A DNA stretch of 64,000 nt from Candidatus Latescibacterota bacterium (GTDB lineage: Bacteria > Latescibacterota > UBA2968 > GCA-2709665): positions 5,362,269 through 5,426,268 of the forward strand of contig CBDCOX010000002.1 of NCBI GenBank assembly GCA_965219995.1, read 5' to 3'. This document shows positions 636-23,600 of the stretch, one piece after another. The position numbers were made by a program, and so were the translations under genes. Positions within the stretch are counted from its first letter, which is position 1; each line of letters begins with the position of its first letter. The notes under the pieces are model-generated. The model was given only the letters and a program-made list of their open reading frames with translations, was not told the DNA's origin and did no database searches.

Positions 636-851
636 CTACGACAGGTGTGCCTTGAAGAACCCCTGCCAGTCTCGCACGGCAATGCCGCGCACCAAGGTGG
701 ATTGCATCTCGCCGATGTAGTTGTCCATCAGACCATATCGGGCGAGCCGTCCGAAGTTGCCGCCGCCGTCCTTGGAGGGTTGGTCCGAGATGTTGGATTT
801 GGACGCGGGGTACGGAGACACGCCGGGCGGAGGCCGAGGCTTTCCTGGCAT
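636..851 (-). pseudogene. probable remnant of the cognate restriction endonuclease (internally deleted)
   Basis: 71-aa ORF MPGKP..PYPASKSNISDQPSKDGGGNFGRLARYGLMDNY..WQGFF. ATG lies where the MTase catalytic domain ends. Resemblance to the C-terminus of partners of this MTase type is recalled, not searched. Confidence 0.45.
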
Positions 852-1933
852 GAGTCGAGCCTTTCGACGGCTGCGTGGTAGAACTCCGAGACGATCTCGG
901 CGCTGTGGGATGCGCGGCCGAGCCGGAACGCGCAGATGGCGGCGGGGCACAGTCCGCCGAAGGGTTCCCAGACCGTGTCGCCCGCGTCGGTCGTGGCCCG
1001 TATGGTGGTCTCAATCAGTTCCAGCGGCTTTTGGCTTCCGTGGAGGCTCTTGTACCTCCATCGCATTTGCTGCCGGTCGCCGTTGATGCGCTGCTTGCCG
1101 GACACCTGCGGTTGCCGCCAGACGTTCGTCACTCCCGCCGGACACTGGAACTTGGCTCGCATGCGGGCCCACTGTTCCGCGGTGATCGAACGCTGCCCGT
1201 CCTGGCTGAAGTAGGGCCTGCCGGAGGGATCGCCATGCTCGTTGGCATAGTCGGCGAGCCGCACGAAGGCGTCGGGCGGCGGGTAGTACCAGAGGTGATC
1301 CGCCGTGAGGTACTTGCGGGTGGCGGCGTTGGCAACGCCACAGGCGTCGTTGGCCAGGCGCAGGGGTAGTCCCGAACGGCGCCACTCGCAGCGCAGCCAG
1401 TCCTGCATGGACAATGTCCCCCCCGTCGCCGAGCGGAACCTCGGGGCCTTGACGTACTGCGCACAGACCTCCGTGATGACCGGGAACTTGCGGAGCGTGC
1501 GCGTGTTGGCGTTGCCAGCGATGTGGCCGAGGCCCTTGTCCCAGATGTGGCAGCTTCGATACTCCCACCCGTGTTCGGCGAGAAGTGGGTGGACGGTGGC
1601 CCAGCCCAGTTCGGAATTCCAGAGCCAAAGCGTGGTTTCGGGGGTGGACCGCGCTGACCACGCCTCGACGTGGGGGCGGTACCAATCGACGAGGCCGGTC
1701 GCCGTGTGCAGATCGCCAGGGAATCCGTTTAGGCCGTAAGGCCCGTCGGCGATGATGCAAACCGGCACAGGCCACAGGTCGTAGAGGGTTTCCGCAGGTT
1801 GGAAATGGATCGTCGACTTGGCGCGTTGGAAGGACTCTGGCTGCGGCGACGGTGACGCAGCGCCGTTGCGGGCGGCTCGGGTTTGCGGTTCGACAGGCAT
1901 GCGTCGTAGTGCGGCGGCGGTGTTGCGCGTCAT
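728..1933 (-). CDS. site-specific DNA methyltransferase (N6A/N4C, beta class)
   Basis: Motif IV variant IIADGPYG, IWDKG, HGSQKPLELIE, motif I variant GDTVWEPFGGL; start chosen at MTRNT with GGAAAG SD. Confidence 0.85.
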   Translation of the reverse strand: MTRNTAAALRRMPVEPQTRAARNGAASPSPQPESFQRAKSTIHFQPAETLYDLWPVPVCIIADGPYGLNGFPGDLHTATGLVDWYRPHVEAWSARSTPETTLWLWNSELGWATVHPLLAEHGWEYRSCHIWDKGLGHIAGNANTRTLRKFPVITEVCAQYVKAPRFRSATGGTLSMQDWLRCEWRRSGLPLRLANDACGVANAATRKYLTADHLWYYPPPDAFVRLADYANEHGDPSGRPYFSQDGQRSITAEQWARMRAKFQCPAGVTNVWRQPQVSGKQRINGDRQQMRWRYKSLHGSQKPLELIETTIRATTDAGDTVWEPFGGLCPAAICAFRLGRASHSAEIVSEFYHAAVERLDSCQESLGLRPACLRTPRPNPTSRTNPPRTAAATSDGSPDMV

Positions 1934-2056
1934 GTCTTTCCGTCTCGTCGTATTGTACGCAGGTCCGCGCGGGAGCGTGACCGCGATGCGGTTTCTCGCT
2001 GGCTCTCGCTGGGACGCAGGTTGGGTCGTGGTCACCTCGGACCGGGATTCCAATAA

Positions 2057-2072: not shown

Positions 2073-2203
2073 CTAAAAGAGCCAGCCTTCCCTCAAGCCA
2101 GTCAAGCAAGGCTGACGTTCGTCGGCTCCCAGCGGGGCTCTGCTCCTGAGGGTGTCACGCCCGGCCGCGTCGTAGCATTTGATCCGGTTGGAACGGTTGA
2201 GGG

Positions 2204-2986
2204 GTGACAGCTTTCCTCAAGCCCGTGCTGGCGGCTGTGCTGCTGCACGCGACGATCGCGCAGGACGTGCGCGCCGGCGACGACCAGCACGTGCGTCGCT
2301 TCGGCGGCGTGCTGCACTTCGCGATCCTGCGCGGGGTGCCCGGCGTCGACGTGCAGGCGGAGATCCTCGGCGCGCTCCTGGCCGCCGTGCCCGAGGAACT
2401 CGAAGGGATCGAACCGGAGCACCAGGCGGTGCAGGGGTTCTGGCCCCTGAATCCGTCTTGCGAGCGCGAGGAACTGATCTGGGCCGAGCGCTACCGCGAC
2501 CTCAGGGACTGGACGAACGCCGAGTTCACCGCCCAGCGGGACCCCGGCTGGATCACCAACCAGGTGGCGCTCATGCAGTCGGGGAGGCTCACGTTCTACT
2601 CCGAGGCGCAGGTGGAGGACACCCTGGACGATGCGCCGCGCCTGATGCGCCGGCCGGAAGACCCGCCGATCGCCGTCCACTGGCTGCAGCTCCGTTCCGA
2701 GTCGATCCTGCCCAATCTCGTGGCCCTGCCGGAGCACGTACGGAAGCTGGATCGCCTGCTGCGGGAGGCGGGCCACACCGACATCGCCGTGCAGTACTAC
2801 GGCGCCCTGACCTCGGCCGGGAGCGACCGGGAGAACGCGAGCATCTGGGTGGAGTACCGGGATCTCGCGGCGATGTCGGCAGCCCTGGCGTTCCTGACCA
2901 CCGATCCCGCCGCCCGCGGCTGGCGCCGGGGACTTGCCCACCTGACCGACGTACAACGCGAGTGGTACCTGCTGGAGGCCAAATGA
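2204..2986 (+). CDS. exported hypothetical protein, possible NIPSNAP/dimeric alpha-beta barrel C-terminus
   Basis: Signal-peptide-like N-terminus, typical codon usage, ATGA overlap with next gene; IWVEYRDLAAM..DP..W pattern. Confidence 0.6.
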   Translation: MTAFLKPVLAAVLLHATIAQDVRAGDDQHVRRFGGVLHFAILRGVPGVDVQAEILGALLAAVPEELEGIEPEHQAVQGFWPLNPSCEREELIWAERYRDLRDWTNAEFTAQRDPGWITNQVALMQSGRLTFYSEAQVEDTLDDAPRLMRRPEDPPIAVHWLQLRSESILPNLVALPEHVRKLDRLLREAGHTDIAVQYYGALTSAGSDRENASIWVEYRDLAAMSAALAFLTTDPAARGWRRGLAHLTDVQREWYLLEAK

Positions 2987-5900
2987 ACACGATCAACTGC
3001 GCCCGTTCCCCGTTCGCGGTCCTCGTCCTGTTCGGCGCGGGCGTCTGCCTCGCCCAGGACGAGCCCGCGGCGCCGCACCCGTTGTTGCCGGCCTACGAGC
3101 GCGCGGCGGCGGTCCAGGGGCACGCCGAGGACCGATGGGTGCTCAACCAGACCATCCATCCGCGGTGGATCGATGCGTCCACGTTCTGGTACGAGCGCGA
3201 AACGCCCGGGGGCAAGGTGTACACGCTGGTGGACGCGGAACGCCGCGAAAAGCGGCCCGCCTTCGACCACGAAGCCCTCGCGGCCTCGCTCACCGAAGAG
3301 ACGGGCCAGGAGATCGACGCCGACGCGTTGCCCATAGTGGGCGTCGAGATCGAACCCTCCGCGGTGACCTTCACGGCCGTTGGCCGCTTCTTTCGATTCG
3401 AGGACGGCGAACTCGAGGAACTCGACGCCAATCCCAACGACGCTTCCTGGCTGGTCTCCCCCGACGGGTCCAGGGCGGCCTTCTCCAGGGACCACAACCT
3501 CTGGGTGAAGCGCCTCGCTTCCGGCGAGGAGAAACAGCTCACGAGCGACGGCGAACCCTTCTACGCCTACGGGGCGACGCCCAACGCCACCGGCCGGCCC
3601 GCGGTCAGGCCGGAAGCCGTGTGGTCACCCGACTCGCGCTACCTCTTCACCGCGCAGACGGACGACCGCCAGGTGCAGTCCCTGCCGGTGATCGACTTCG
3701 CGCCCGCCGACGGGAGCATCCGGCCCAGGGTGATCGACTACCGCCAGGCGCTGCCCGGCGACGAGCACATAACCCGCTTCCGCACGACCGTCATCGACAC
3801 GGACACCGGCAAGCAGACGCCGGTCCACTACCCGGACCTCGCGGCGGCGCGCATGAACGACACGCCCTTCGGGGGCAACCGCGCCTGGTGGTCCGCGGAC
3901 TCCACGGCGGTCTACTTCGTGGACATCCTGCGCGGCGAGCGGGAGGCCCGCGTGGTCACCGCGGCCCGCGACTCGGGGCTCGCCCGCGTGGTGTTCCGGG
4001 AGACCACGGACACCTACCTGGAACTCGGCTCGAACGTGTACATGCCGACCTTCATCGTGCCCCTGCCCGGGAGCGAGGAGTTCGTCTGGTATTCGGAGAA
4101 GTCGGGCTGGGGGCACCTGTACCTGCACGACGCGTCAACGGGCGAGGAGAAGCGTGCGCTTACCGCCGGCGACTGGCTCGTGAGAGACGTGCTCGGGGTG
4201 GACCGGGAAGGGCGCGAACTCTTCCTGACCGTCGGCGGGCGCCGGCCGGACGCCAATCCCTACTTTCGCGAAGTGGTCCGGGTGAACCTGGACACCGCCG
4301 AACTCACCGTGCTGAGCGCCAGTGACGCGGACCACATCGTGCTCTCGCAGGGCGACTTCTCGCTGCTGCTGCTCACCGTCTTCGGCCAGGACCCGGGCGC
4401 GGTTTCCGGGCTGTCTCCCGGCGCCGCCTACTACGTGGAGACCCGCCAGCGCCCGGACCGGCCCAACGCCACCGCGCTCATGTCGGCGGACGGCGAGGAA
4501 CTCCTGCTCGTCGAGGAGGCAACGCCGCATGCCGTGCCGGACGGGCAACGCTGGCCCGAACCCTTCACCGTCACCGCCGCCGACGGCGAAACGGAGATTC
4601 GCGGCGTGATGCTGAAGCCGCGGGACTTCGATCCCGGCCGGTCCTACCCGGTGATCGACTACATCTACGGCGGGCCCCAGGTCGCGAACGTGCCCAAGAC
4701 GGGTTTCAGTTCCCTGTCCTCCCTGAGCCTCGACTCGGCCGCGTCCCTGGCGGAACTGGGGTTCGTCGCGGTCATCCTGGACGGACGCGGCACCACGGAA
4801 CGCTCGCGCGCCTTCCACGAGTCGTCCTACGGCCGGCTGCAGACCGCGAGCAACCTCGAAGACCACGTCGCCGCCATCCGGCAGCTCGCCGAGCGGTTCC
4901 CGTACCTGGACGCGGAGCGCGTCGGCATCACCGGGGTCTCCGGCGGCGGCTACATGGCCGCGCGCGGCATGCTCAAGTTCCCGGAGTTCTTCAAGGTCGG
5001 CGTGTCCATCGCCGGCAACCACGACCAGCGGCTGTTCTGGCACAGTTGGGGCGAGCGCTACCAGGGCCTGCCGGCGGGGGACAACTACCTCGAGCAGGCG
5101 AACCTGACGCACGCCGCGAGCCTCGAGGGCAAGCTCCTCTTCATTCACGGCATGCTGGACTTCGGCGTCCACCCCGGCGGCCTCTTCCAGCTCACGCAGG
5201 CCCTCATGGACGCCAACAAGGTGTTCGACCTGGTGCTGTTGCCGCAGACCGGTCACGCGCTGCCCGGTTACGGCATGGTGCGCATGTGGGACTATTTCGT
5301 CCGGCATCTCGGCGGGATGGAACCGCCGCCGGGCTTCAGCGCGAAGTCGTCCTCGGACCGCATGATGGAGCAGGTGAAGACCATTCAGATGGCCGCCATG
5401 GCACAACCCGAGGCGCCGCCGGCCGACGACCCGGCCGCGGACGAGTGGGGTCCGGCGGTGCGGGTCACGCTGGAGACGGACGCCGGCGACATCGCGCTGG
5501 CGGTGTACCCGGAGGCCGCGCCCGCGTCCGCCGGCAGTTTCCTGGAACACGTCGACCAGGGGCTCTTCGACGGCGGTGCCTTCTACCGCGTCGTGCGCCG
5601 GAACAACGACAACGGCTCGCCGGTCATCGAAGTGGTTCAGGGCGGCCTGACGGACCCCTCGAAAGCCCTGCCGTCAGTCCCGCACGAGACTACCGAGCAG
5701 ACCGGCATCCGCCACCTCGACGGCACGCTGTCACTCGGCCGGACGGACCCCGGCAGCGCCAGCGGCGGCGCGTTCTTCGTCACCGTCGGCGACCAGCCGA
5801 GCCTCGACTTCGGCGGTGCCCGCAACGCCGACGGCCTCGGCTTCGCCGCGTTCGGACGCGTCACCTCCGGCATGGACGTGGTGCACGGGATTCACCAGGA

Positions 5901-5991
5901 GGAAGCCACGGCACCCACGGACAACGCCTACCTGCGGGGCCAGTTGCTGAACGAGCCGGTGATCATTCGCAAGGCGTATCGGCAACCTTGA
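2983..5991 (+). CDS. S9B dipeptidyl-peptidase IV-like peptidase fused to C-terminal cyclophilin-type peptidyl-prolyl isomerase (1002 aa)
   Basis: GGAGG SD, signal peptide, DPPIV beta-propeller, GVSGGG/HGMLD/TGH triad; from ~5458 FYRVV..VVQGG..SLGRT..FFVTV..LDFGG..FAAFGRV. Confidence 0.9.
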   Translation: MNTINCARSPFAVLVLFGAGVCLAQDEPAAPHPLLPAYERAAAVQGHAEDRWVLNQTIHPRWIDASTFWYERETPGGKVYTLVDAERREKRPAFDHEALAASLTEETGQEIDADALPIVGVEIEPSAVTFTAVGRFFRFEDGELEELDANPNDASWLVSPDGSRAAFSRDHNLWVKRLASGEEKQLTSDGEPFYAYGATPNATGRPAVRPEAVWSPDSRYLFTAQTDDRQVQSLPVIDFAPADGSIRPRVIDYRQALPGDEHITRFRTTVIDTDTGKQTPVHYPDLAAARMNDTPFGGNRAWWSADSTAVYFVDILRGEREARVVTAARDSGLARVVFRETTDTYLELGSNVYMPTFIVPLPGSEEFVWYSEKSGWGHLYLHDASTGEEKRALTAGDWLVRDVLGVDREGRELFLTVGGRRPDANPYFREVVRVNLDTAELTVLSASDADHIVLSQGDFSLLLLTVFGQDPGAVSGLSPGAAYYVETRQRPDRPNATALMSADGEELLLVEEATPHAVPDGQRWPEPFTVTAADGETEIRGVMLKPRDFDPGRSYPVIDYIYGGPQVANVPKTGFSSLSSLSLDSAASLAELGFVAVILDGRGTTERSRAFHESSYGRLQTASNLEDHVAAIRQLAERFPYLDAERVGITGVSGGGYMAARGMLKFPEFFKVGVSIAGNHDQRLFWHSWGERYQGLPAGDNYLEQANLTHAASLEGKLLFIHGMLDFGVHPGGLFQLTQALMDANKVFDLVLLPQTGHALPGYGMVRMWDYFVRHLGGMEPPPGFSAKSSSDRMMEQVKTIQMAAMAQPEAPPADDPAADEWGPAVRVTLETDAGDIALAVYPEAAPASAGSFLEHVDQGLFDGGAFYRVVRRNNDNGSPVIEVVQGGLTDPSKALPSVPHETTEQTGIRHLDGTLSLGRTDPGSASGGAFFVTVGDQPSLDFGGARNADGLGFAAFGRVTSGMDVVHGIHQEEATAPTDNAYLRGQLLNEPVIIRKAYRQP

Positions 5992-5997
5992 GGAGCT

Positions 5998-7518
5998 TCA
6001 GGACTTCAGCAGGGCCCTGAAGCGCGTATGCGCGTAGCGACGGCGCCCGACCTCGTGAAACGACAGCAGCGCCATGCGTCCCCAGACGCCCGAGAAGAAG
6101 TCCTTCGGCAGCCCCGCCGGGGCGAACAGGTTGTCGTGAACGGCCGAGCAGGTGACCGTCGGCGCCGCGTCGCTCGAGCCCATGTAGAGTTCCAGGACCT
6201 CCTTCTGTTCCTCGCTGGCCGGCAGGTAGTGCGAGGTCACGTCGATTTCGTCGGCGCCTTTCCCTGCACGCACTTCCGCGCGTGACTCGAAAGACTCGTA
6301 GTCGCCGGCGTAGTGACTCATCGGCAGGGTGGTCGCCGCCTCGGAGAAGGGCGGCTCGACGGTCAGTCCGACGTGCTCCCGCAGTACGGTGCTGACCAAC
6401 CGGTCGTGCAGGGGGCTCGATCCCGGCCCGGTGCCGAAACTCGCGATCACAAGGTCGTACTCCGGGAACACCGTCAGCCCGGAAGTGCCTCCCGGCGACC
6501 CGCCGCCATGCCACCAGCCCGTGGTGCCGCCGATGGACGGCAGGAACCAGCCAAGCCCAATCGGCGGCGCGTTGGGCGTCTTCAGATCGAACGTCGGGGT
6601 GCGCATCGCCCGGCAGAGTTCGGCGGAGAGCACGCGCGTTCCGTTGGGCGCGACGCCGTCCGCCAGGTGCGTGCGCGCGAACGCGATGAGGTCCGGCACG
6701 TTGACGATCGGCGTCGCCCCGGCCGGGGCCGCCGACACCGGCAGCATGAACAGGCGCGCCGCCGCCATCTCGCCGTCCGGGCCGGGATAGGCCCCGACCG
6801 CGGTGCGGTGGAGGATCGCCTGGGTCGCGGAGGTGACGGACCGGTCCATGCCGATGGGCGCGTAGATTTCCTCTTCCAGCGTCCGGTCGAAACGCTTGCC
6901 CGACAGGGTCTCGATGATGCGCCCGGCGATCGTGAAACCCGGGTTCGTGTAGTGCAGCAGTTCGTCCGGGGCGAACAGGGTGCCGATCCCGGAAAGCGCG
7001 TCGATGTACGACTGCACCGCGTTGGGGCCGAACTCCCGTGCGGGCATCAGGGTGTCCGCATCGATGCCGTTGGTGTGGTTGACGAGCTGGCGCACCCGGA
7101 TGCGCTCCGCGGCCCCCTCCTCGGCCAGGCGAAAGTCCGGGAGATAGCGGGTGATGGGCGCATCGAGATCGATCTTCCCCGCTTCCACGTACTTCAGCAG
7201 CAGGGTGGTGGTCAGCACCTTGGTGATGGAGCCGAGCAGCCAGGCCGTATCCGTCGTCATCGGATCGCCGGTGTTGAGGTTGCGCACCCCGTGCGCGAAC
7301 AGCCACTCCGATCCGTCCTGGTAGATCCCGGCCACGTAGCCGGGCGAGCCGAGTTCTTCCGCAAGTTTCGGTATCAGCTCGGAAAGGAGCCCGCCGATGC
7401 CTGCGAGGGACGAACCCCCCACTTGCCCGCCGCCCGACGACGCGGGCGCGCCCGTGAGTGCAATGGCGGGTGCAGCGGCCAGCGTGGCCGCCCCGGAAAC
7501 GAACTGTCGACGTCGCAT
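5998..7518 (-). CDS. Tat-exported serine hydrolase (beta-lactamase/AmpC-like family)
   Basis: MRRRQF Tat motif; SITK (SxxK), YTN (YxN), HGGG. Confidence 0.9.
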   Translation of the reverse strand: MRRRQFVSGAATLAAAPAIALTGAPASSGGGQVGGSSLAGIGGLLSELIPKLAEELGSPGYVAGIYQDGSEWLFAHGVRNLNTGDPMTTDTAWLLGSITKVLTTTLLLKYVEAGKIDLDAPITRYLPDFRLAEEGAAERIRVRQLVNHTNGIDADTLMPAREFGPNAVQSYIDALSGIGTLFAPDELLHYTNPGFTIAGRIIETLSGKRFDRTLEEEIYAPIGMDRSVTSATQAILHRTAVGAYPGPDGEMAAARLFMLPVSAAPAGATPIVNVPDLIAFARTHLADGVAPNGTRVLSAELCRAMRTPTFDLKTPNAPPIGLGWFLPSIGGTTGWWHGGGSPGGTSGLTVFPEYDLVIASFGTGPGSSPLHDRLVSTVLREHVGLTVEPPFSEAATTLPMSHYAGDYESFESRAEVRAGKGADEIDVTSHYLPASEEQKEVLELYMGSSDAAPTVTCSAVHDNLFAPAGLPKDFFSGVWGRMALLSFHEVGRRRYAHTRFRALLKS

Positions 7519-7564: not shown

Positions 7565-9886
7565 CTACCGCCCGGACTCCATCACGTTTCTTGCAAAGAA
7601 GCCGGCGAGCTTGCGAATGAAGTAAGCCTCCCCCGCGCCGGTGTAGCCGTGCCCCTCCTCGGGAAGCACGACCTGGTCGTGGTCGACGCCGGCATCGATC
7701 AGCGCCCGGCTCATGCGCATGAACTCCGGAAACGTCGCGAAATCCGCCAGGCCGCCCACCAGCATCAGCCGGCCCTTGACCTGCGGCGCCAGGCGGTAGG
7801 GGGATGCGAACTCGTAGGCGCTCTTGGCCCGCTCCGGCAGGTCGAGGTAGGGCTCGTACAGGAGCGACGCGTAAGGGTTGAAGCCCGGTGCGCTCGAGAC
7901 CGCGGCCCGGTACAGGTCCGGCGCCTGGGCCAGCGCCGCGAAGGCGTAGTAGCCGCCCCAGGAGTGGCCCCAGATGCCGACGCGGTCGAGGTCCATGAAG
8001 GGATGCCGCTCGCCGAGCTGACGGATGGCGGCGGCATGGTCCGCGATCTCGTTCTGGCCCCAGCTCCGGTAGATGACGTCCTGGAACGCCTTCGAGCGCT
8101 CCGGCGTGCCCCGCCCGTCGAGGGTGACGACCACGTAGCCGAGCTGCGCCATGGCCCGCGGCAGGTTCTGCGTCTTCGACAGGCCGAGCGAGAACGTCCT
8201 GTCGGTCGCGACGATCTGGGGTCCGGCGTAGAGGTATTCGAGCACCGGGTACGTCTTGTCGGGGTCGAAGTCGTACGGCCGGTGCATCACGCCCCAGAGA
8301 TCGGTCTCGCCGTCGGCGGCCTTGACGCTGAACTCCACCGTCGGCGTCCAGCCCAGCGATTCCAGCGCGCCGATGTCGGCTGCAGCCAGGGTGCGGGCCA
8401 AGGCGCCGTCGGCGGAGCGCAGATCGACGCGCGGCGCCCGGCCGGGACTCGAGTGGGTATCGAGGAACCAGGCGAGGGACGGGGAGAACCGCACGGCGTG
8501 CTGGCCTTCCCCCTCGGTCAGCCGCTGCACGGCGCCACCGCCGAGCGGCACCCGGTACAGGTGGGTGTCGTAGACCCGGGGACGCTCGCCATGGGCCGTG
8601 AAGTACACCCAGCCGTTCTCCTGGTCGACTTCCCGCACCTCGAGCACCGGGTAGTCGCCCCGCGTCAACTGGCGTTCGAGACGCCCGTCGTTGCGATACA
8701 GGTAGAGGTGATTCCAGCCGTCCCGCGTCGATTCCCACAGGAAGCCGCTCCCGTCCGGCAGGGCCGTGAAGCCGGTATTGCCGAAGGAGACGACATCGTG
8801 CTGGATCTTGACGAAGGTATCGGCCGTCTCGGTGAACAGCGTGCGCACCGATCCGTCCCGGGCGTTTGCGGCCATGACGTCCACCGACTTGAAGTCCCGG
8901 GAGAAACGCGCGAACAGCGCTTCCGACGAGTCCGGCAGCCATCCGAGCAGGTTGAAGTAGCGGTCCTCCGTATCCACGTCGACGGCGACCCGCTCGCCCG
9001 AGAGGATGTGCAGGATGTGGGGCCGCACATGGTCGAGGTGACCCCCGGCGACGGCGAAGGGCCGCAGGACGATGCGCTCGAGGGTGTCCATGTAGCGCAG
9101 TTCCCCCTTGCGCGGCAGCTTCGACCGGTCGGTCAGGGTCGCCCAGAGCTTCAGGCTGTCCGGAGACCAGGGGGTGAACGGCACGTAGACGATGGAGATG
9201 CCCGCGCCGAGGGTGAGGCGCGTGCTCTCCACGTCCCAGGCGTCGTCGAACGTGCCGTCGGCCGTGAGCGCATGGACGCCGCCGTCCGCCGCCGAGCGCA
9301 GGGCCACGTTCTCGTCGATCAGCGTCGCGTACCACTTGCCGTCCGGGGAGCGCACCTCGGGCGACGGCGTGGGCAGGCCGAAGTAGTTGCGGCGCGGGAA
9401 GGTGCCCGGCCGCACGTTGGCGGCCGGCGTCGCGGCCGGCGCGGGTTGGGGCTCGACCACGTAAGCCGCCATGTCCAGGCTGAACCGCGCGCCTTCCAAG
9501 GCGAAGCTCGCCGTGGCGCCGTCGGGAGACAACTGGAAGGTCTCGAACGGGACCCCGGCGTAGGGCGGCTCGTGGCCGATCGCCGCGGCGATGGCGGCAC
9601 GCAGGCGCGGGACGTCGAACAGCGGCTCCACGGTGTCGGCGGCCGGATCCACGCGCCAGATCACCCGGTTGGCCGGCCCGCCCTCGGCGAACCAGAAGCT
9701 CGAGCCGTCGGCGAGCCAGTTGGGCTCGATGGAGGCGCCTTTCACGAGCGTCGCGAACTCGAGATAGCGCTCGAACACCGCCTGCCGGCGGTCGTCGGCC
9801 GCCGCCAGCGGCGCAACCGTCATTGATGCCAACGCGGCTGTCAACGCGAAGACGATCGCCGCCCGCACTCTCCCGCTTCGGTTCAT
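7565..9886 (-). CDS. S9B dipeptidyl-peptidase IV-like peptidase
   Basis: Signal peptide, DPPIV N-terminal propeller, GIWGHSWGGY, catalytic D (LADF) and H (EGHG). Confidence 0.9.
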   Translation of the reverse strand: MNRSGRVRAAIVFALTAALASMTVAPLAAADDRRQAVFERYLEFATLVKGASIEPNWLADGSSFWFAEGGPANRVIWRVDPAADTVEPLFDVPRLRAAIAAAIGHEPPYAGVPFETFQLSPDGATASFALEGARFSLDMAAYVVEPQPAPAATPAANVRPGTFPRRNYFGLPTPSPEVRSPDGKWYATLIDENVALRSAADGGVHALTADGTFDDAWDVESTRLTLGAGISIVYVPFTPWSPDSLKLWATLTDRSKLPRKGELRYMDTLERIVLRPFAVAGGHLDHVRPHILHILSGERVAVDVDTEDRYFNLLGWLPDSSEALFARFSRDFKSVDVMAANARDGSVRTLFTETADTFVKIQHDVVSFGNTGFTALPDGSGFLWESTRDGWNHLYLYRNDGRLERQLTRGDYPVLEVREVDQENGWVYFTAHGERPRVYDTHLYRVPLGGGAVQRLTEGEGQHAVRFSPSLAWFLDTHSSPGRAPRVDLRSADGALARTLAAADIGALESLGWTPTVEFSVKAADGETDLWGVMHRPYDFDPDKTYPVLEYLYAGPQIVATDRTFSLGLSKTQNLPRAMAQLGYVVVTLDGRGTPERSKAFQDVIYRSWGQNEIADHAAAIRQLGERHPFMDLDRVGIWGHSWGGYYAFAALAQAPDLYRAAVSSAPGFNPYASLLYEPYLDLPERAKSAYEFASPYRLAPQVKGRLMLVGGLADFATFPEFMRMSRALIDAGVDHDQVVLPEEGHGYTGAGEAYFIRKLAGFFARNVMESGR

Positions 9887-10042
9887 GGTCTCAGCTCCGG
9901 GTCGTTCCATCGGCCCGCGCCGATGGTCAGGCGAATGGACGCATACCCGTCGTCCTTACCTCAAGCCGGCCGCGCGCTTGGCGTGTCGGCCGGGGCGTCG
10001 TACGTGTTCGGGCATTGGGAGCCCTGACGCGCGGGCTCTTCC

Positions 10043-12336: not shown

Positions 12337-12606
12337 TCAGTTGCCTGGACGAAACACTTCGTCGAGCGTGTCGGCGTCGAGGACGTTGTCAGCCCAGATC
12401 TCGAGATCGGCGGCAGACGCCCGGCGCAGCCTTTCGGCGGCTTGGGGAGACAGGCGCCCGAACCGGCGCCGGAGTTGCCGTTCGAGGACCGCCCGCTCGC
12501 CCTCTACGCGGCCTTGACGGACGCCGCGTTCCATGCCTTCCTGCCGACCCTCCTGCCTGCCTTCCTGCCTGGCCTCGTCACGGGCTCTCTCGATGACTCC
12601 TGCCAT
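12337..12606 (-). CDS. putative intragenic small Rpn (RpnS-type antitoxin), 89 aa
   Basis: In-frame ATG at 12606 preceded by GGAGGAG (12616-12622) with 9-nt spacer. Confidence 0.6.
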   Translation of the reverse strand: MAGVIERARDEARQEGRQEGRQEGMERGVRQGRVEGERAVLERQLRRRFGRLSPQAAERLRRASAADLEIWADNVLDADTLDEVFRPGN

Positions 12607-13290
12607 GACCCTGCTCTCCTCCGCGTAGCCGCTCTCGTAGCGCCGGTACTCGTCCTCGTCGAGTTCGGCGTAGACGTCGATGAACGTCATGTATTTTGCC
12701 CTCCTGTCCGGGTCCGGTTCCACCGCCTCCAGCCCCCGCACCGCGGCCGCGTAGGCGTCGACCCGGCGCCCGGCCGGGACGCGCATGTTCGGAAGGTTCA
12801 CCAGCGCCGCCACGTTGCGGCTCTCGCGCCAGCGCTCGTAAGGCGTCGCGGCAAGCCGGAAGGCGAGGTGGTCGAACGTCAGGTAGGGGCGCCGCTCGGT
12901 GCCGAGCACCAACGCCGCCGCGCTCCCGGCCGGCGCCGTGCCGCGCAGGAAGATCGTCACCGGCACCACGCGGTCCGTCTCGTACAACTGCGCGATGTCC
13001 AGGCAGTAGTGCGCGAGGCGGTGCTGCGAGAACCGCCGCGCCTCGGTCTCCTGCTCGACGACGAACAGCATCGCCTTGCGGCGGTCGTCGGCCCAGCGGA
13101 CCAGCAGCGGTGCGTCGAGCTCGCGGAAGCGGTCGCCGAGGCGCTCCTTGAGCTGCTCCTGGCGCAGCGGCGTGATATCCACCTCGTCGTCCGGCGCCGG
13201 CGCCTCCTCGGGGGCAAAGAAGGCCAGCGCGTCGCGCGGGTAGTCAAGGATGAGGTTCTTGAAGTTCTGGTCGTGGCTGACGCTCGCCAT
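12337..13290 (-). CDS. Rpn family recombination-promoting nuclease/putative transposase with DUF4351 C-terminus
   Basis: HDQNFKNLI, ELDAPLLV..LFVVEQET, RQEG repeats, LRRRFG..ADLEIWADNVLDADTLDEVF. Confidence 0.85.
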   Translation of the reverse strand: MASVSHDQNFKNLILDYPRDALAFFAPEEAPAPDDEVDITPLRQEQLKERLGDRFRELDAPLLVRWADDRRKAMLFVVEQETEARRFSQHRLAHYCLDIAQLYETDRVVPVTIFLRGTAPAGSAAALVLGTERRPYLTFDHLAFRLAATPYERWRESRNVAALVNLPNMRVPAGRRVDAYAAAVRGLEAVEPDPDRRAKYMTFIDVYAELDEDEYRRYESGYAEESRVMAGVIERARDEARQEGRQEGRQEGMERGVRQGRVEGERAVLERQLRRRFGRLSPQAAERLRRASAADLEIWADNVLDADTLDEVFRPGN

Positions 13291-13548
13291 GGCTGCGCCC
13301 GGTGCTTTTTTCTGGCCAAAGGATGGGCCGGAGCGGGGCGGCCGCGCTACGGCAGATCGTCTACATGGCGACGGGCCGATCTCCCACGACCGCGGGGGGC
13401 GCTGGACTACACGGGCTCGCGGTTGGCGGCCTGGGGACGGCGTCCGTCTATGGCACCGGAGCCATCTTGGCAACGCGCCGGGCGATCGTCGCTCCTGCCG
13501 GCCGCCAGCCGGCAGCGCCCGCCGCGGGCGGAAACGGCGCGGAGCCGG

Positions 13549-18873: not shown

Positions 18874-19064
18874 CCTTGGCGGTGGGGGGAATGTGTCTTG
18901 TCCGGGCGCTGGGCGTGCACGCCACTTATGGTGGTACTACAGCTCGATAGGTTTCTGCGGGCGGTGGTGGCTGCCGGCATCAGCGAGTGCACGTTGCGTG
19001 CTCCATCTCTAACCGCACACTCTCAAGCGACTGGCTGACCGCGCTACGGTTTCCCGCCCGAGGC

Positions 19065-19093
19065 TTGCGGCGTGTAGCGTGCCGCGTTACGGT
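19065..19093 (+). promoter_or_regulatory. higBA promoter with overlapping operator
   Basis: TTGCGG-N17-TACGGT; imperfect inverted repeat GTAGCG-N5-CGTTAC at 19074-19090. Confidence 0.5.
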
Positions 19094-19098
19094 GGGTC

Positions 19099-19371
19099 AT
19101 GCGAATCAGGCACAGGGGACTACGGGAGCTGCACGAGCGAGGCAATCCCGCACGACTGCCGGCCGAGCTGGTGCCCCGGCTTCGGCGCATCCTGTTCCGT
19201 CTGCAGGAGGCGACGCATCCGGGAAGCGCCAACGCGCCGGGTTTCCGGCTGCATCCCCTGAAGGGCGACCGCTCGGGCCAATGGAGCGTTCGCGTCTCGG
19301 GGAACTGGCGTGTGGTCTTCCGTTTCAAGGATCGCGAAGCGGTGGATGTGGACCTGATCGACTATCACTGA
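19099..19371 (+). CDS. higB: HigB toxin (RelE/ParE family)
   Basis: RHRGL..LHPLKGDR.GQWSVRVSGNWRVVFRF..VDLIDYH. Confidence 0.92.
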   Translation: MRIRHRGLRELHERGNPARLPAELVPRLRRILFRLQEATHPGSANAPGFRLHPLKGDRSGQWSVRVSGNWRVVFRFKDREAVDVDLIDYH

Positions 19372-19379
19372 CCAAGAGA

Positions 19380-19703
19380 ATGCTGACGATGAACGACATT
19401 GCAGGCGACCGCGTCGGCCCGATGCTGAATCCGCCGCACCTGGGCGAACTGATCCGCGAGAGCATGGACGAGGAGGGTTGGAACGTGACCGACACGGCGG
19501 CCCGGCTCGGGTGCGAGCGTGGCACGCTGTCGAGGGTGCTGAACGGCAAGGCAGGCGTGTCGGCGAACATGGCGCTGGCGCTGGAGGATCTCGGCTGGGG
19601 CACAGCCGATCACTGGATGCGGATGCAGGCGAGCTACGAGCTGGCGCTGGCGCGCCGGTCCAGGGGATCGGCCGAGGGGCGCGGCGCGGCCTTGCAGGCA
19701 TGA
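19380..19703 (+). CDS. higA: HigA antitoxin (XRE HTH)
   Basis: MLNPPHLGELIRE..TDTAARLG..TLSRVLNGKAGVSANMALAL..WMRMQASYEL; directly after higB. Confidence 0.92.
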   Translation: MLTMNDIAGDRVGPMLNPPHLGELIRESMDEEGWNVTDTAARLGCERGTLSRVLNGKAGVSANMALALEDLGWGTADHWMRMQASYELALARRSRGSAEGRGAALQA

Positions 19704-20986: not shown

Positions 20987-21664
20987 ATGGGCCTCGGGGA
21001 CATCGTCGCGCTGGCACTGGGTGGTTACGCGTTCGTAGCCAGATTCGTGCTGACCAGGGACCGCATGGTCCGTTGGAGCGGCTACGAGATGCTGTTCGCT
21101 TGCGGGATCGCGGGCGTGTTAATCGCCGGCCTGACGCTGCCGGCCGCGAAAACCGGCGCCGTGCTCGGCTACTGGCAGACCGGCATCGGCGTTTGGACGA
21201 CGGCGGGGGTGCTGGGAATCCCGGTCAGTTTCTGTCAGCTGTGCGACTGGACATACCAGGTCTGGATCACCCACAAGTGCCTGTTCGACGCCAATCCGAC
21301 GCCGAACAACAACATAGGACGGTTGCCGCACTTCACGAGCCGCCTCGCCACGATCACCCAAGAGTACGCCTTGCAGCAGATCGCCAAGCTCCACGACCCT
21401 TGGAAGCAAGGCAACGCCACCAATCTCACGATCAACTACTTCGTCGAGCGCGGCGCTTGGGGCAGGCAGAAACCGATTGTCCAAGAGATCGCTGCAAGAC
21501 TCGCTGAGTTGCACGAGCGCATATTGCCAGCCCGGAACAAGATACTCTCTCACCACGACCTTGACACGGCGATCAGCAACACCACTCTTGGCTCTTTCTC
21601 TGTGGGCGACGACGACAGCTATTTCGCCTCGTTGCAGGAGCTAGCTAGTAGACGCGGTGCATGA
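20987..21664 (+). CDS. TM N-terminus fused to AbiU2-like HEPN domain
   Basis: ~3 hydrophobic segments, then QQIAKLHDP..NLTI..RNKILSHHD (HEPN R-x4-6-H). Confidence 0.6.
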   Translation: MGLGDIVALALGGYAFVARFVLTRDRMVRWSGYEMLFACGIAGVLIAGLTLPAAKTGAVLGYWQTGIGVWTTAGVLGIPVSFCQLCDWTYQVWITHKCLFDANPTPNNNIGRLPHFTSRLATITQEYALQQIAKLHDPWKQGNATNLTINYFVERGAWGRQKPIVQEIAARLAELHERILPARNKILSHHDLDTAISNTTLGSFSVGDDDSYFASLQELASRRGA

Positions 21665-21802: not shown

Positions 21803-23600
21803 TCAGTCAAATCGAGCATCGTTCAGCCTTCAGTACGCTTTCGTGCCTTTGAAGCCCTCGTGTCTCTGCGCCAAATCCCAAGCCGTTAATCCGTCGCCAC
21901 CGACCAACGCTGCGTTTGCTCTGCCATCCAGCAGAGCATCTACAACCGACGGCTCCGGAAGCCCGGCCAAGGCCCGAAGAAGTGGGGTCGCCCCTGTCTC
22001 GTCCCGCAAGTTCGGGTTCGCCCCCGCGTCGAGCAAGCGGGAAATCATGACGTCGTTGTTAGGCGCGTCCGTGTCGTTGTACGCGGGCGCAGCGGCATTG
22101 TGCAAGGGTGTCCGCCCCTGCGCGTTCCGCGAGTTGGGATCGGCACCACCGCCGATCAACGCTTCAACCATAGAGAGGTTTGCGACCCCGGAATTAGCGA
22201 CCACGTGTAGGGGCGTGTTGCCGTAGTCATCCGGCGAGTCCGAACTCGCTCCGTGCCGAATCAGCAGCGAGACCAGCTTCGTGTCAATCTCGGGTCCTGC
22301 AGCGGGAGAACAGGACGATGGCGCGGTCCCCAACGCCGCGCTGTGAAGGGGCGTCCAACCCGACCTTGATCTCACGTTCGTCGCCGCCCCACGGTCGATC
22401 AGCGCGGCTACTATCTCCACACTTCCGTAGAGTGACGCACGCCTCACCATGCCGAAGAGAGGCGTTTCGCCGTCCTCGTTCCGCGCATTGGGGTCGGCAC
22501 CAGTCTCAGTCAGCATGAGGATCTCGGCGACGGTCCCAACGTGGTGCAGCGGTGTCTCGCCATCAACGTCCCTCGCATTCGGGTCGGCCCCTCCAGCGAC
22601 CAAAGCAGCGACTACGGATGGCTGGCGCGGGTGACGACTCGCCGCGACATGGAGGGGCGTGCTTAAACCATTGGCGGACACCATCCTGCCGTCCAACGTC
22701 CTGAGGTAGTCCGTTTTTTCGCGGTCGTCATCAAGGGCCCCCACCGAATACGGAAACAGCTCGCGCGGCGTCCACGTCTCCCTGATCCGAGGATTCCGAT
22801 CCGCGCCCCCTTCCAACAGCGCTACGACCACGTCCGGGTTGGGGTTGGCGTACGCCGCCGCGTGCAATGGCGTCCAGCCTACCGTCGTCCCAACGTTCGG
22901 ATCAGCGCCGCCTTGGAGCAACGTCGCGACCACGAGCGGATTCGGGTTGGCGAACGCCGCACAGTGTAGTGCGGTTCGAGCATCCCCCACTCGCACATCA
23001 TCCGCGTTCGGATGTCGATTCCTCGACAACACACGCCGAAGGTCAACCGTCCTTGTATCCCCGATCAGCGCATTCGGATCGGCACCGAGGGCGAGTAGGC
23101 GCGAGATGATCGCCGGTTCCTCGTTGCCGAACGCCGCCAAGTGCACGGCCCTCCAGCCGCTGGATGTCTCCCCGTTTGGATCGAGCCCCTGGTCGACCAA
23201 TGCTGCTAACTCGGTTGGATCGTTCCCTATCAGAGCCGCCGTGTGCACTCCGGTCCAGCCGTAGTCCACTAGCGCTGCACCATCACCACCGTACTTGCTC
23301 GTTGACGTCCGCGCCAGCGCCCAGCAGCACCGCTACCACATCAGGATTCGTGGCCTCAAGAGCTGCCCGGAACAAGGGTGTGATTCCGTCCGTGGACCGG
23401 TCACGGACGTCTGCTCCCATCTCTAAACAATGTGAGACTTCTCTCGCGGTTACGTTTCTGAAGAACCTCTGCGTGTTCCAACCTTTGCAACTGGTTGCAT
23501 CAACGACGACCTCCGTGGGCGGCAACCAGAGTCGCCAAGAGCCTATGGCTACGCCTCCAACGACGAGCACCGAGGCGGTCAATATGGCTGCAAGTCGCAT
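21803..23600 (-). pseudogene. exported ankyrin-repeat protein with frameshift (~23295) and premature TGA (21830-21832)
   Basis: Signal/TM, WNTQRFF..CLEMGADV cap, ~10 GxTPLHxAA..GADPN repeats in ORFs 23283-23600 and 21830-23269; tail KGTKAY*RLNDARFD. Confidence 0.85.

Follow-up and report, generated by a model that had tools for sequence, protein, structure and literature searches.

S9B serine peptidases and cyclophilins are both textbook families. Prolyl cis/trans isomerization limits protein folding, as well as proteolysis in test-tube assays, and we know of no organism that ties an isomerase to a peptidase for catabolism. Here we describe a gene in a 64,000-nucleotide stretch of a Candidatus Latescibacterota genome (contig CBDCOX010000002.1, positions 5,362,269 to 5,426,268; hereafter, the window) that encodes an S9B-type peptidase and a cyclophilin in a single chain of 1,002 amino acids (aa), referred to below as the fusion protein (Table 1). 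The conceptual analogue of such a pairing is the protease-coupled assay of peptidyl-prolyl isomerases (PPIases) with chymotrypsin and Suc-Ala-Xaa-Pro-Phe-pNA, in which, according to the available sections of the source, chymotrypsin cleaves only the trans Ala-Pro form, proteases can be conformer-specific, and cyclophilin removes the slow cis-to-trans phase (PMC11104532). The assay pairs unrelated proteins in vitro, whereas the pairing found in fusions and operons is encoded and evolutionarily conserved.

The closest solved relative of the peptidase part is the prolyl tripeptidyl aminopeptidase of P. gingivalis (2D5L, 2EEP, 2Z3W, and 2DCM), which is the best sequence match (E value of 4e-54) and a top fold match (TM score of 0.74 to 0.77 on the target, 22 to 23% identity) and has the same build of propeller and α/β-hydrolase. 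Ser603, Asp, and His of the tripeptidyl enzyme, together with Tyr518, align with Ser653, Asp726, His758, and Tyr562 of the fusion protein; however, its Glu205 and Glu636 are matched by Arg205 and Trp686, and the solved enzyme has no cyclophilin. DPP-IV (5YP1 from Pseudoxanthomonas, 2ECF from Stenotrophomonas, 5OLJ, and 1N1M) belongs to the same S9B family, with the same fold and the DPPIV_N plus Peptidase_S9 arrangement, and its bacterial chains are 20 to 24% identical to the peptidase part, but it has a Glu pair where the fusion protein has Arg205-Pro206, and it carries no C-terminal cyclophilin. For the cyclophilin part, the closest solved cyclophilin is E. coli PpiA (RotA; 1CLH and 1J2A), likewise an exported bacterial cyclophilin, which has FxRV, QGG, FF, and Leu in common with it, as well as Arg-Thr at what we take to be the Asn102-Ala103 positions. 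Compared with PpiA, the cyclophilin of the fusion protein has an 8-residue insertion, Ala for Gln before Phe-Phe, Ser at the Phe/Trp121 position, a longer C-terminal strand (...GQLLNEPVxIxxAYR), and near-invariant Asn875, Glu902, Thr904, Arg947, and Asp950; PpiA is free, whereas the cyclophilin described here is tethered to an enzyme.

The fusion gene runs through 1,002 codons with no internal stop in translation; its ATG overlaps the stop codon of the upstream open reading frame (ORF) as ATGA, and GGAGG sits 4 nucleotides (nt) 5′ of it. The N terminus of the product, MNTINCARSPFAVLVLFGAGVCLA/QDE, resembles a Sec signal peptide by eye and by hydrophobicity count. The frame is open upstream to nt 2179, which would give a protein of 1,270 aa, and this longer start was rejected because homologues begin at the same MNxI... 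signal peptide. A first-pass annotation, made from the letters of the window alone, had read the gene as one 1,002-aa ORF with a signal peptide, an S9B peptidase, and a cyclophilin; the Pfam matches exceed their cutoffs, and the motifs lie where it had put them. It had also claimed that the linker holds no stop and no second signal peptide. The linker is borne out by independent contigs: in three sequencing runs, each from a different study, contigs span it with substitutions only and zero indels (X1, nt 5172-5991, 0 differences, the window possibly having been assembled from this run; X3, nt 5209-5991, 11 substitutions; X6, nt 5275-5597, 11 substitutions). The cyclophilin part has neither a signal peptide nor a start codon context of its own. 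The gene encodes one polypeptide, which is predicted to be exported.

The same architecture recurs elsewhere. A word-index search gave 601 relatives at an E value of ≤0.001, of which 120 were listed; PF00930, PF00326, and PF00160 (DPPIV_N, Peptidase_S9, and Pro_isomerase), the combination that the first-pass annotation had proposed to look for, occur together in one protein in 24 of these 120, from 97% down to 48% identity, and the source labels given are Gammaproteobacteria, Xanthomonadales, and Flavobacteriaceae. The proteins of the other 96 hold no cyclophilin, gene context having been covered for the 37 loci described below. Among these loci, a single ORF with both domains is also present in the genomes of 15 other species (L004-L018), a number of which are filed under the title "genome assembly, chromosome: 1." An AlphaFold2 model of the full fusion protein, built from a 21-row alignment of fused homologues (A1), reached a mean pLDDT of 74 and a pTM of 0.69 and served for linker disorder and secondary structure only; according to this model, the peptidase is tethered to the cyclophilin by a disordered linker of about 15 residues. 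A Foldseek search with the whole-protein model returned S9B enzymes only, with no solved chain that spans both parts. In the close relatives P0017, P0018, and L026 (5956-8610), the cyclophilin stops after about 40 residues or enters unrelated sequence, probably as a result of frameshifts or in decaying copies. P0020 (1,028 aa), which lies inside the fused clade, has PF06439 (3-keto-disaccharide hydrolase/DUF1080-type) at aa 832-1026, in the cyclophilin's place.

To follow the gene pair in other genomes, one genome per prokaryotic species was scanned with two peptide patterns, which yielded 37 loci; both patterns lie in the peptidase part, and the locus sample is therefore not biased toward the cyclophilin. 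The stop-to-stop ORFs of the loci were searched with two custom hidden Markov models, built from aa 30-800 of A1 for the peptidase and from aa 826-1000 for the cyclophilin. Peptidase and cyclophilin are fused or adjacent in 30 of the 37 loci, 15 being fused and 15 neighboring. In 12 loci (L023, L025, L027-L030, L033-L036, L038, and L039), a separate cyclophilin gene of the same strand abuts or overlaps the peptidase gene at its 3′ end; in two more it lies within 1.4 kb (L031, with a gap of 1.36 kb, and L040), and in one (L032) it is adjacent and convergent. Further loci have the cyclophilin gene 4.3 kb from the peptidase gene (L024) or a fusion with a truncated cyclophilin (L026). The partner gene itself may be composite: in five loci (L030, L031, and L034-L036; Pfam E values of 1e-123 to 1e-133), the partner of the orthologous peptidase gene is a cyclophilin-DUF885 fusion, and in Blastomonas (L025) three genes follow one another as peptidase, cyclophilin, and DUF885, with an S9/PD40 peptidase farther on. 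Cyclophilin-DUF885 fusions and stand-alone cyclophilins of the subfamily are encoded directly behind the peptidase gene in loci of Caulobacteraceae and Sphingomonas. Two loci with separate genes come from culturable species, L033 from Sphingopyxis witflariensis DSM 14551 and L031 from Sphingomonas mali NBRC 15500. As a Rosetta-stone fusion, the fusion protein joins the two members of a conserved gene pair, whose split form is found in Proteobacteria. The first-pass annotation had asked whether all relatives keep separate genes; fused and separate forms both exist, and the separate forms make the functional link stronger, not weaker. On these genomic grounds, the proposed functional partnership of peptidase and cyclophilin is well supported.

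The export signals of the split partners vary together. In unfused loci, a hydrophobic leader on the peptidase is accompanied by one on the cyclophilin (5 of 5: L023, L024, L025, L027, and L033), and a leaderless peptidase by a cyclophilin or cyclophilin-DUF885 protein that is likewise leaderless (11 of 11). The hydrophobicity gap between the leader classes is narrow (1.47 versus 1.69), so the classes were also read by eye, and the 11 leaderless loci form one basal clade and therefore represent few independent events of covariation. The two partners appear to share a compartment.

The peptidase tree (IQ-TREE, quick mode) was built from 75 rows, that is, 34 loci and 41 of 121 proteins (P0001 plus 40 of the 120 listed relatives), leaving out the fragmentary L021, L022, and L037. 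In L022 (5860-8315; Gemmatimonadales) and L037 (5950-8353; Eremiobacterota), the peptidase is split over two to four overlapping frames, and these may be pseudogenes or sequencing errors. On this tree the fused label needs five changes, four of which are forced by well-supported branches, and the groups that carry it are the clade of the fusion protein, P0021-23, P0024-30 (Flavobacteriaceae-like), and P0040. The cyclophilin tree (FastTree, 173 domains), which is weakly resolved, has fused forms in three places, two of them forced. P0040 adjoins the split pair of L025 and L033 on the peptidase tree (starred value of 98) and falls with it into one 7-row group on the cyclophilin tree (support of 83), which suggests that P0040 arose by local fusion of neighbors. 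Fused forms occupy at least three or four places on the trees, which are unrooted, so that gains and losses of the fusion cannot be separated with certainty.

The peptidase part has the features of S9 membership, namely, the family model match, the Ser-Asp-His order, and a Ser in a GxSxGG turn, as well as those of S9B, with a DPPIV_N propeller, an oxyanion Tyr, and top fold matches that are all S9B enzymes. The triad, whose GVSGGG, Asp, and His the first-pass annotation had noted, aligns with the solved triads and is invariant in the 21 fused homologues, and so is the oxyanion Tyr562 in YIYGGPQ (YxGP motif), which aligns with Tyr518 of the tripeptidyl enzyme. The part that recognizes the substrate's N terminus in the described enzymes is different. 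The double-Glu pair of DPP-IV binds the free amino group of the substrate. This motif was not found at the aligned site of the fusion protein, where Arg205-Pro206 takes the place of Glu208-Glu209 of 5YP1 and of the corresponding pair in 2ECF; position 205 is Arg in 18, Gln in 2, and Lys in 1 of the 21 fused homologues, and position 206 is Pro in 18 of them. Equivalents of Glu205 and Glu636 of the tripeptidyl enzyme are likewise not present in the HMMER alignments (numbering offset of 26, checked on Ser603), the aligned residues being Arg205 and Trp686, the latter invariant (21 of 21). In the accessible part of one study, these two Glu residues lie 2.6 to 2.7 Å from the ligand in 2EEP (PMC12251245), and a PDB title names the E636A mutant of the tripeptidyl enzyme. 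With no acidic N-terminus anchor of either described type, the name DPP-IV is unsuitable for the peptidase part; the S9B fold and triad of the earlier assignment stand, and its DPP-IV type, in the strict sense, does not. The peptidase part is best described as an S9B member with an intact triad, in an uncharacterized clade, and with the acidic anchors replaced, its register and P1 preference are not readable from the sequence.

The cyclophilin domain matches Pro_isomerase (PF00160) over aa 828-977 with 70.7 bits (cutoff of 21.7; E value of 2.2e-19), and 31 solved cyclophilins match it at an E value of ≤0.001, the best being E. coli PpiA (5e-16). A HMMER scan of 1.84 billion cluster representatives gave 6,943 relatives at an E value of ≤0.001 and 166 at ≤1e-30; the best of them are mostly proteins of 180 to 230 aa with 40 to 62% identity. 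Over 152 near-full-length domains, the positions N875, I882, E902, T904, R920, R947, and D950 are kept as subfamily-specific ones, and the domain belongs to a distinct and populous subfamily. Human cyclophilin numbering was placed on the PpiA alignment in what we take to be the correct register. Arg869, the equivalent of Arg55, is Arg in all 21 fused forms and in 151 of the 152 domains, and further active-site positions are kept in most of them (F931 in 145, F932 in 144, L941 in 145, and F/Y954 in 151), so that equivalents of Phe113 (Phe932) and Leu122 (Leu941) are present; the equivalents of Met61 and His126 would be Val884 and Phe954, respectively, in our mapping. The retention of the catalytic Arg and of QGG, which the first-pass annotation had noted, holds at Arg869 and Gln886. 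According to a review, the site of cyclophilin A comprises Arg55, Phe60, Met61, Gln63, Gly72, Ala101, Phe113, Trp121, Leu122, and His126, of which Met61 and Trp121 vary in active cyclophilins (bacteria often have Phe at 121 and Tyr at 126); the Arg is essential for catalysis rather than for binding, and the Gln orients it (PMC13162259). Judged by these counts, the site looks to be under purifying selection, compatible with catalysis.

We propose that the fusion protein isomerizes and then cleaves, the cyclophilin acting on prolyl bonds of the peptidase's substrates, and we assign this reading a probability of roughly 0.5. The cyclophilin would bind Xaa-Pro segments of proline-containing oligopeptides beside the peptidase and catalyze their cis/trans interconversion, so that wrong conformers would not stall hydrolysis. 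The products would pass to the enzymes encoded next to the fusion gene, namely, a second S9B peptidase, an S15-family hydrolase, an S9/PD40 peptidase, and a DUF885 protein. The arrangement would be a natural counterpart of the protease-coupled PPIase assay. At low temperature, prolyl isomerization without a catalyst needs from tens of seconds up to minutes, and DPP-IV-like enzymes reportedly need trans prolyl bonds, as is said to have been found in 1983 by Fischer, Heins and Barth and by Lin and Brandts. Within one operon type, the partner of the cyclophilin switches between peptidase and DUF885, a pattern more in keeping with work on a common stream of substrates than with a role in a single enzyme.

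Several observations weigh against this reading. In the peptidase part, the S1-pocket residues Trp632, Tyr635, and Tyr639 of the tripeptidyl enzyme correspond to Gln682, Phe685, and Trp689, and GWSYGG of the solved S9B enzymes is GVSGGG (Tyr604 to Gly654); with the Glu anchors replaced as well, dipeptidyl activity and even proline specificity of this clade are not established. The S1 pocket and the Asp and His loops have pLDDT values of <50, and the model gives no usable domain geometry; a complex prediction for aa 25-800 with aa 822-1002 (21-row alignments) scored 0.00, which speaks neither for nor against the reading. In the cyclophilin, the equivalent of Phe60 is Ile882 or Glu883 (register uncertain by one), that of Gln111 is Ala930 (Gln before Phe-Phe in PpiA), which is variable across the subfamily, and that of Trp121 is Ser940. 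No cyclophilin lies in the flanks of 5 of the 37 loci (L019-L022 and L037); the peptidase frame is broken in L022 and L037, and the contig of L021 holds only the C-terminal part of the peptidase. The fusion partners of the subfamily are diverse. Among 26 long cyclophilin relatives, 11 carry amide-bond hydrolase-like domains (α/β hydrolases, including S33-type, in 3; S9 without propeller in 1; DUF885 in 4; β-lactamase fold in 1; penicillin amidase in 1; and M23 in 1), 1 is a PAF-acetylhydrolase-like fusion, and 7 are cyclophilin alone, and the remaining 7 are fused to GDPD, metallophosphoesterase, histidine phosphatase, MFS, PMT_2, SnoaL, and polyketide cyclase-like domains. The second cyclophilin fusion of the host genome is a membrane-anchored PAF-acetylhydrolase-like lipase of 691 aa. 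Fusion to so many unrelated enzymes weakens a reading specific to prolyl peptidases, and such promiscuity would suit an accessory domain of general use, either for binding or for folding.

A broader proposal, which we hold tentatively, is that bacteria possess a module for the breakdown of proline peptides that consists of the cyclophilin subfamily, an S9B peptidase of new specificity, and DUF885, with conformer editing as an integral part. Its three components would occur as separate genes of an operon or as peptidase-cyclophilin and cyclophilin-DUF885 fusions, in cytoplasmic and in exported versions. The cyclophilin-DUF885 fusions contain the same cyclophilin subfamily as the fusion protein, but there the cyclophilin is N-terminal to DUF885, and they have no signal peptides. 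In the accessible portions of literature that mentions DUF885, no characterized cyclophilin-DUF885 fusion and no characterized stand-alone member of the subfamily was found.

The cyclophilin could instead serve to recruit substrates, mainly by binding proline-containing or unfolded segments near the peptidase, with catalysis incidental or lost. Residues that line the groove are conserved and several canonical catalytic-site positions differ, the subfamily behaves as a promiscuous tethered module on many hydrolases, a β-sandwich of a typical accessory type (PF06439) replaces it in one close relative, and the flexible linker would suit a tethered binder akin to the carbohydrate-binding module of a glycosidase. 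However, the catalytic Arg is nearly invariant in the subfamily and the Gln is kept in 148 of the 152 domains, and fusions to nonpeptide enzymes are accounted for no better by recruitment than by isomerize-then-cleave; we regard recruitment as unlikely.

Alternatively, the cyclophilin might be a built-in foldase that assists the folding of its partner enzymes (peptidase, DUF885, and other fused hydrolases) and not the turnover of substrates. Many unrelated exported enzymes, nonpeptidases among them, carry the subfamily as a fused domain, and cyclophilins are described as classical folding catalysts in the available text of PMC13162259. A PF00160 search of the whole host genome (98.6% complete) gave three matches, namely, the fusion gene, the lipase-like fusion, and a truncated remnant, and no free-standing canonical cyclophilin of the PpiA/PpiB type was found in it, FKBP and parvulin not having been searched. 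Three observations speak against a foldase. The pairing is kept in the basal clade, in which both partners are without signal peptides, and it therefore does not reflect a folding need specific to the periplasm; the fusion partner of the cyclophilin alternates between peptidase and DUF885 within one operon type; and five loci are without a flanking cyclophilin, three of them with an unbroken peptidase frame, and one relative has another domain in its place, so that the peptidase probably folds without it. A foldase role thus seems quite unlikely.

Very unlikely, in our estimate, is a dedication to a special class of peptides (cyclic, N-blocked, or precursors of ribosomal natural products) rather than to bulk peptide catabolism. 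The anchors of DPP-IV and the tripeptidyl enzyme are replaced by Arg205-Pro206 and Trp686, and a free α-amino group is therefore probably not recognized; NCBIfam also reports similarity to the lasso-peptide isopeptidase Atxe2. The latter is weak (26.5 bits versus a cutoff of 400) and exists at the general S9 level only, no biosynthetic genes were seen among the annotated neighbors, and these neighbors are hydrolases typical of nutrient peptide breakdown, with a TonB-dependent receptor in the window. An assembly or frameshift error that joined two adjacent genes, to which the separate adjacent genes of other lineages and the frameshift-truncated cyclophilin parts of P0017, P0018, and L026 might point, is excluded for practical purposes by the recurrence of the in-frame fusion in assemblies of 15 other species and in 24 of the 120 database proteins listed, by the contigs of three runs that cross the linker without indels, and by a cyclophilin part that lacks its own signal peptide and start codon context.

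The first-pass annotation knew of no characterized protein with this architecture, and none was found in the literature searched. Our searches, with subscription journals outside their reach, found no paper on a cyclophilin-peptidase fusion. Neither "cyclophilin" nor "isomerase" occurs in PMC11964003, which reviews the S9B enzymes of microbes, or in PMC2605481, which surveys the architectures of serine proteases in prokaryotes. As far as can be told, what is new is a peptidase-cyclophilin-DUF885 module with alternating fusions, covarying export signals, and a replaced N-terminus anchor. If the broader module proposal holds, the fusion protein would be the first isomerase-coupled protease known from nature. 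If the coupling of isomerization to cleavage is real, the conformer heterogeneity of peptides rich in proline would be a selective pressure in nutrient scavenging. The coupling would also give a role to a large cyclophilin subfamily and a functional context to DUF885, delimit a clade of S9B enzymes whose substrate anchor has changed, and possibly lead to better enzymes for the proline-rich peptides of collagen, gluten, and casein.

Table 1. Features of the fusion gene, its neighbors in the window, and the second cyclophilin fusion of the host genome
Feature	Position (nt)	Strand	Evidence or remark
S9B peptidase-cyclophilin fusion gene, 1,002 aa	2983..5991, stop codon included	+	ORF translation, Pfam; same single ORF in L004-L018
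Probable Sec signal peptide, aa 1-24, cleavage after CLA	2983..3054	+	By-eye reading; hydrophobic N terminus kept in fused homologues
DPPIV_N β-propeller, aa 139-456	3397..4350	+	Pfam PF00930, 139.9 bits vs cutoff 22, 1.1e-40; aligns with 2d5l, 5yp1, and 2ecf propellers
Arg205-Pro206, at the site of the DPP-IV double-Glu anchor and tripeptidyl peptidase Glu205	3595..3600	+	HMMER alignments
Peptidase_S9 α/β-hydrolase catalytic domain, aa 585-775	4735..5307	+	Pfam PF00326, 120.8 bits vs cutoff 22.6, 7.4e-35
Catalytic Ser653 in GVSGGG (651-656)	4939..4941	+	Aligns with Ser603 of P. gingivalis tripeptidyl peptidase; 21/21 homologues
Catalytic Asp726	5158..5160	+	Alignment to solved S9B enzymes; 21/21 fused homologues
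Catalytic His758	5254..5256	+	Alignment to solved S9B enzymes; 21/21 fused homologues
Peptidase-family C-terminal helix, aa 789-807	5347..5403	+	Also in unfused relatives (P0016, P0019); AlphaFold helix 790-806
Variable acidic Pro/Ala linker QPEAPPADDPAADEW, aa 808-822	5404..5448	+	No conserved columns in A1; pLDDT <50 at 809-819
Cyclophilin domain, aa 826-1000, of a distinct bacterial subfamily	5458..5982	+	Pfam PF00160
Arg869, equivalent of human cyclophilin A Arg55	5587..5589	+	FYRV (FYRVV 867-871) aligns with PpiA FHRV
RRNNDNGSPV, aa 872-881, subfamily-specific insertion behind the strand of the catalytic Arg	5596..5625	+	8-residue gap in PpiA; Asn875 in 129/152
Gln886 of QGG (886-888), probable Gln63 equivalent	5638..5640	+	Q in 148/152; register uncertain by one residue
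β-Lactamase-fold serine hydrolase, 506 aa, convergent neighbor	5998..7518	-	Pfam PF00144, 4e-53
Second S9B-type peptidase, 781 aa, without cyclophilin	7565..9910	-	Pfam DPPIV_N + Peptidase_S9
S15/CocE-NonD hydrolase, 718 aa	10043..12199	-	Pfam PF02129 + PF08530; TIGR00976, 350 bits
S9 peptidase with PD40 propeller, 692 aa	13549..15627	-	Pfam
DUF885 protein, 657 aa	15624..17597	-	Pfam PF05960, 6.7e-125
PAF-acetylhydrolase-like-cyclophilin fusion, 691 aa	L001 1417-3492, contig C2, ~26 kb before window	-	Pfam 1.3e-10 + 2e-24

The fusion gene, the hydrolase-rich minus-strand genes that follow it, and the DUF885 gene form the same cast as the operons of other genomes, spread over 15 kb of the window. 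The β-lactamase-fold neighbor is kept next to the fused gene in nine loci, and its family is fused to the same cyclophilin subfamily elsewhere (P0178). The second S9B peptidase is conserved in L004, L005, L014, L016, and L017; S9/PD40 peptidases that are 24 to 25% identical to that of the window adjoin the S9B-cyclophilin pair in L023 and L025, and a protein of the same Pfam type occurs in L038. The DUF885 protein, whose gene lies 10 kb from the fusion gene, contains HELVPGHH, and in the orthologous operons L025, L030, L031, and L034-L036, DUF885 is fused to the cyclophilin or follows it; the family belongs to the zincin clan Peptidase_MA of Pfam, as given in the accessible part of PMC12572635. 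NCBIfam has no equivalog for the fusion gene or its neighbors. A DUF4351 ORF (12337-13473) lies in the middle of the hydrolase stretch. Upstream of the fused gene, a gamma-glutamyltranspeptidase gene is found in L004, L005, L009, L013, L016, and L017, within about 0.3 kb in L009 and L013; in the window, about 2.4 kb (540-2982) separates the gamma-glutamyltranspeptidase position from the fused gene, with a DNA methylase at 728-2053 (minus strand). This stretch also holds an ORF with no family at 2204-2986 (plus strand) or 2102-2956 (minus strand), which the window has in common only with L004 and L016. Farther along are an HTH_31 protein (18987-19703), a HEPN AbiU2-like protein (20987-21664), an ankyrin-repeat protein of 479 aa (21830-23269, minus strand), and the TonB-dependent receptor.

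The PAF-acetylhydrolase-like fusion of the host genome has N-terminal membrane helices and a C-terminal cyclophilin that is 45% identical to that of the fusion protein, and it groups with another PAF-acetylhydrolase fusion on the cyclophilin tree. A truncated copy of its gene (L003, 1411-1689, minus strand; the last ~80 aa) lies beside a duplicated downstream glyoxalase-like gene and looks like a segmental duplication. Next to the truncated copy is a DUF4351/Rpn-like ORF (L003, 1872-2924), another copy of which is cut at the end of L001 (2-448). Tandem cyclophilins also occur among the database relatives P0124-P0268.

A promoter scan found none, and terminator-like sites are at chance level. 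In RNA library X20, three contigs with 95 to 99% likeness cover only nt 5498-5785 and are no proof that the fusion gene is transcribed. Contigs of several runs match nt 4861-4895 and 4978-5003 only, with a diverged stretch of equal length between them, around the catalytic Ser; these are probably paralogous or related S9 genes with a shared motif rather than variants of the fusion gene. Near-identical sequence is present in contigs from runs labeled as sponge, coral, and marine metagenomes, which, as a speculation, would be compatible with life on a proline-rich host matrix.

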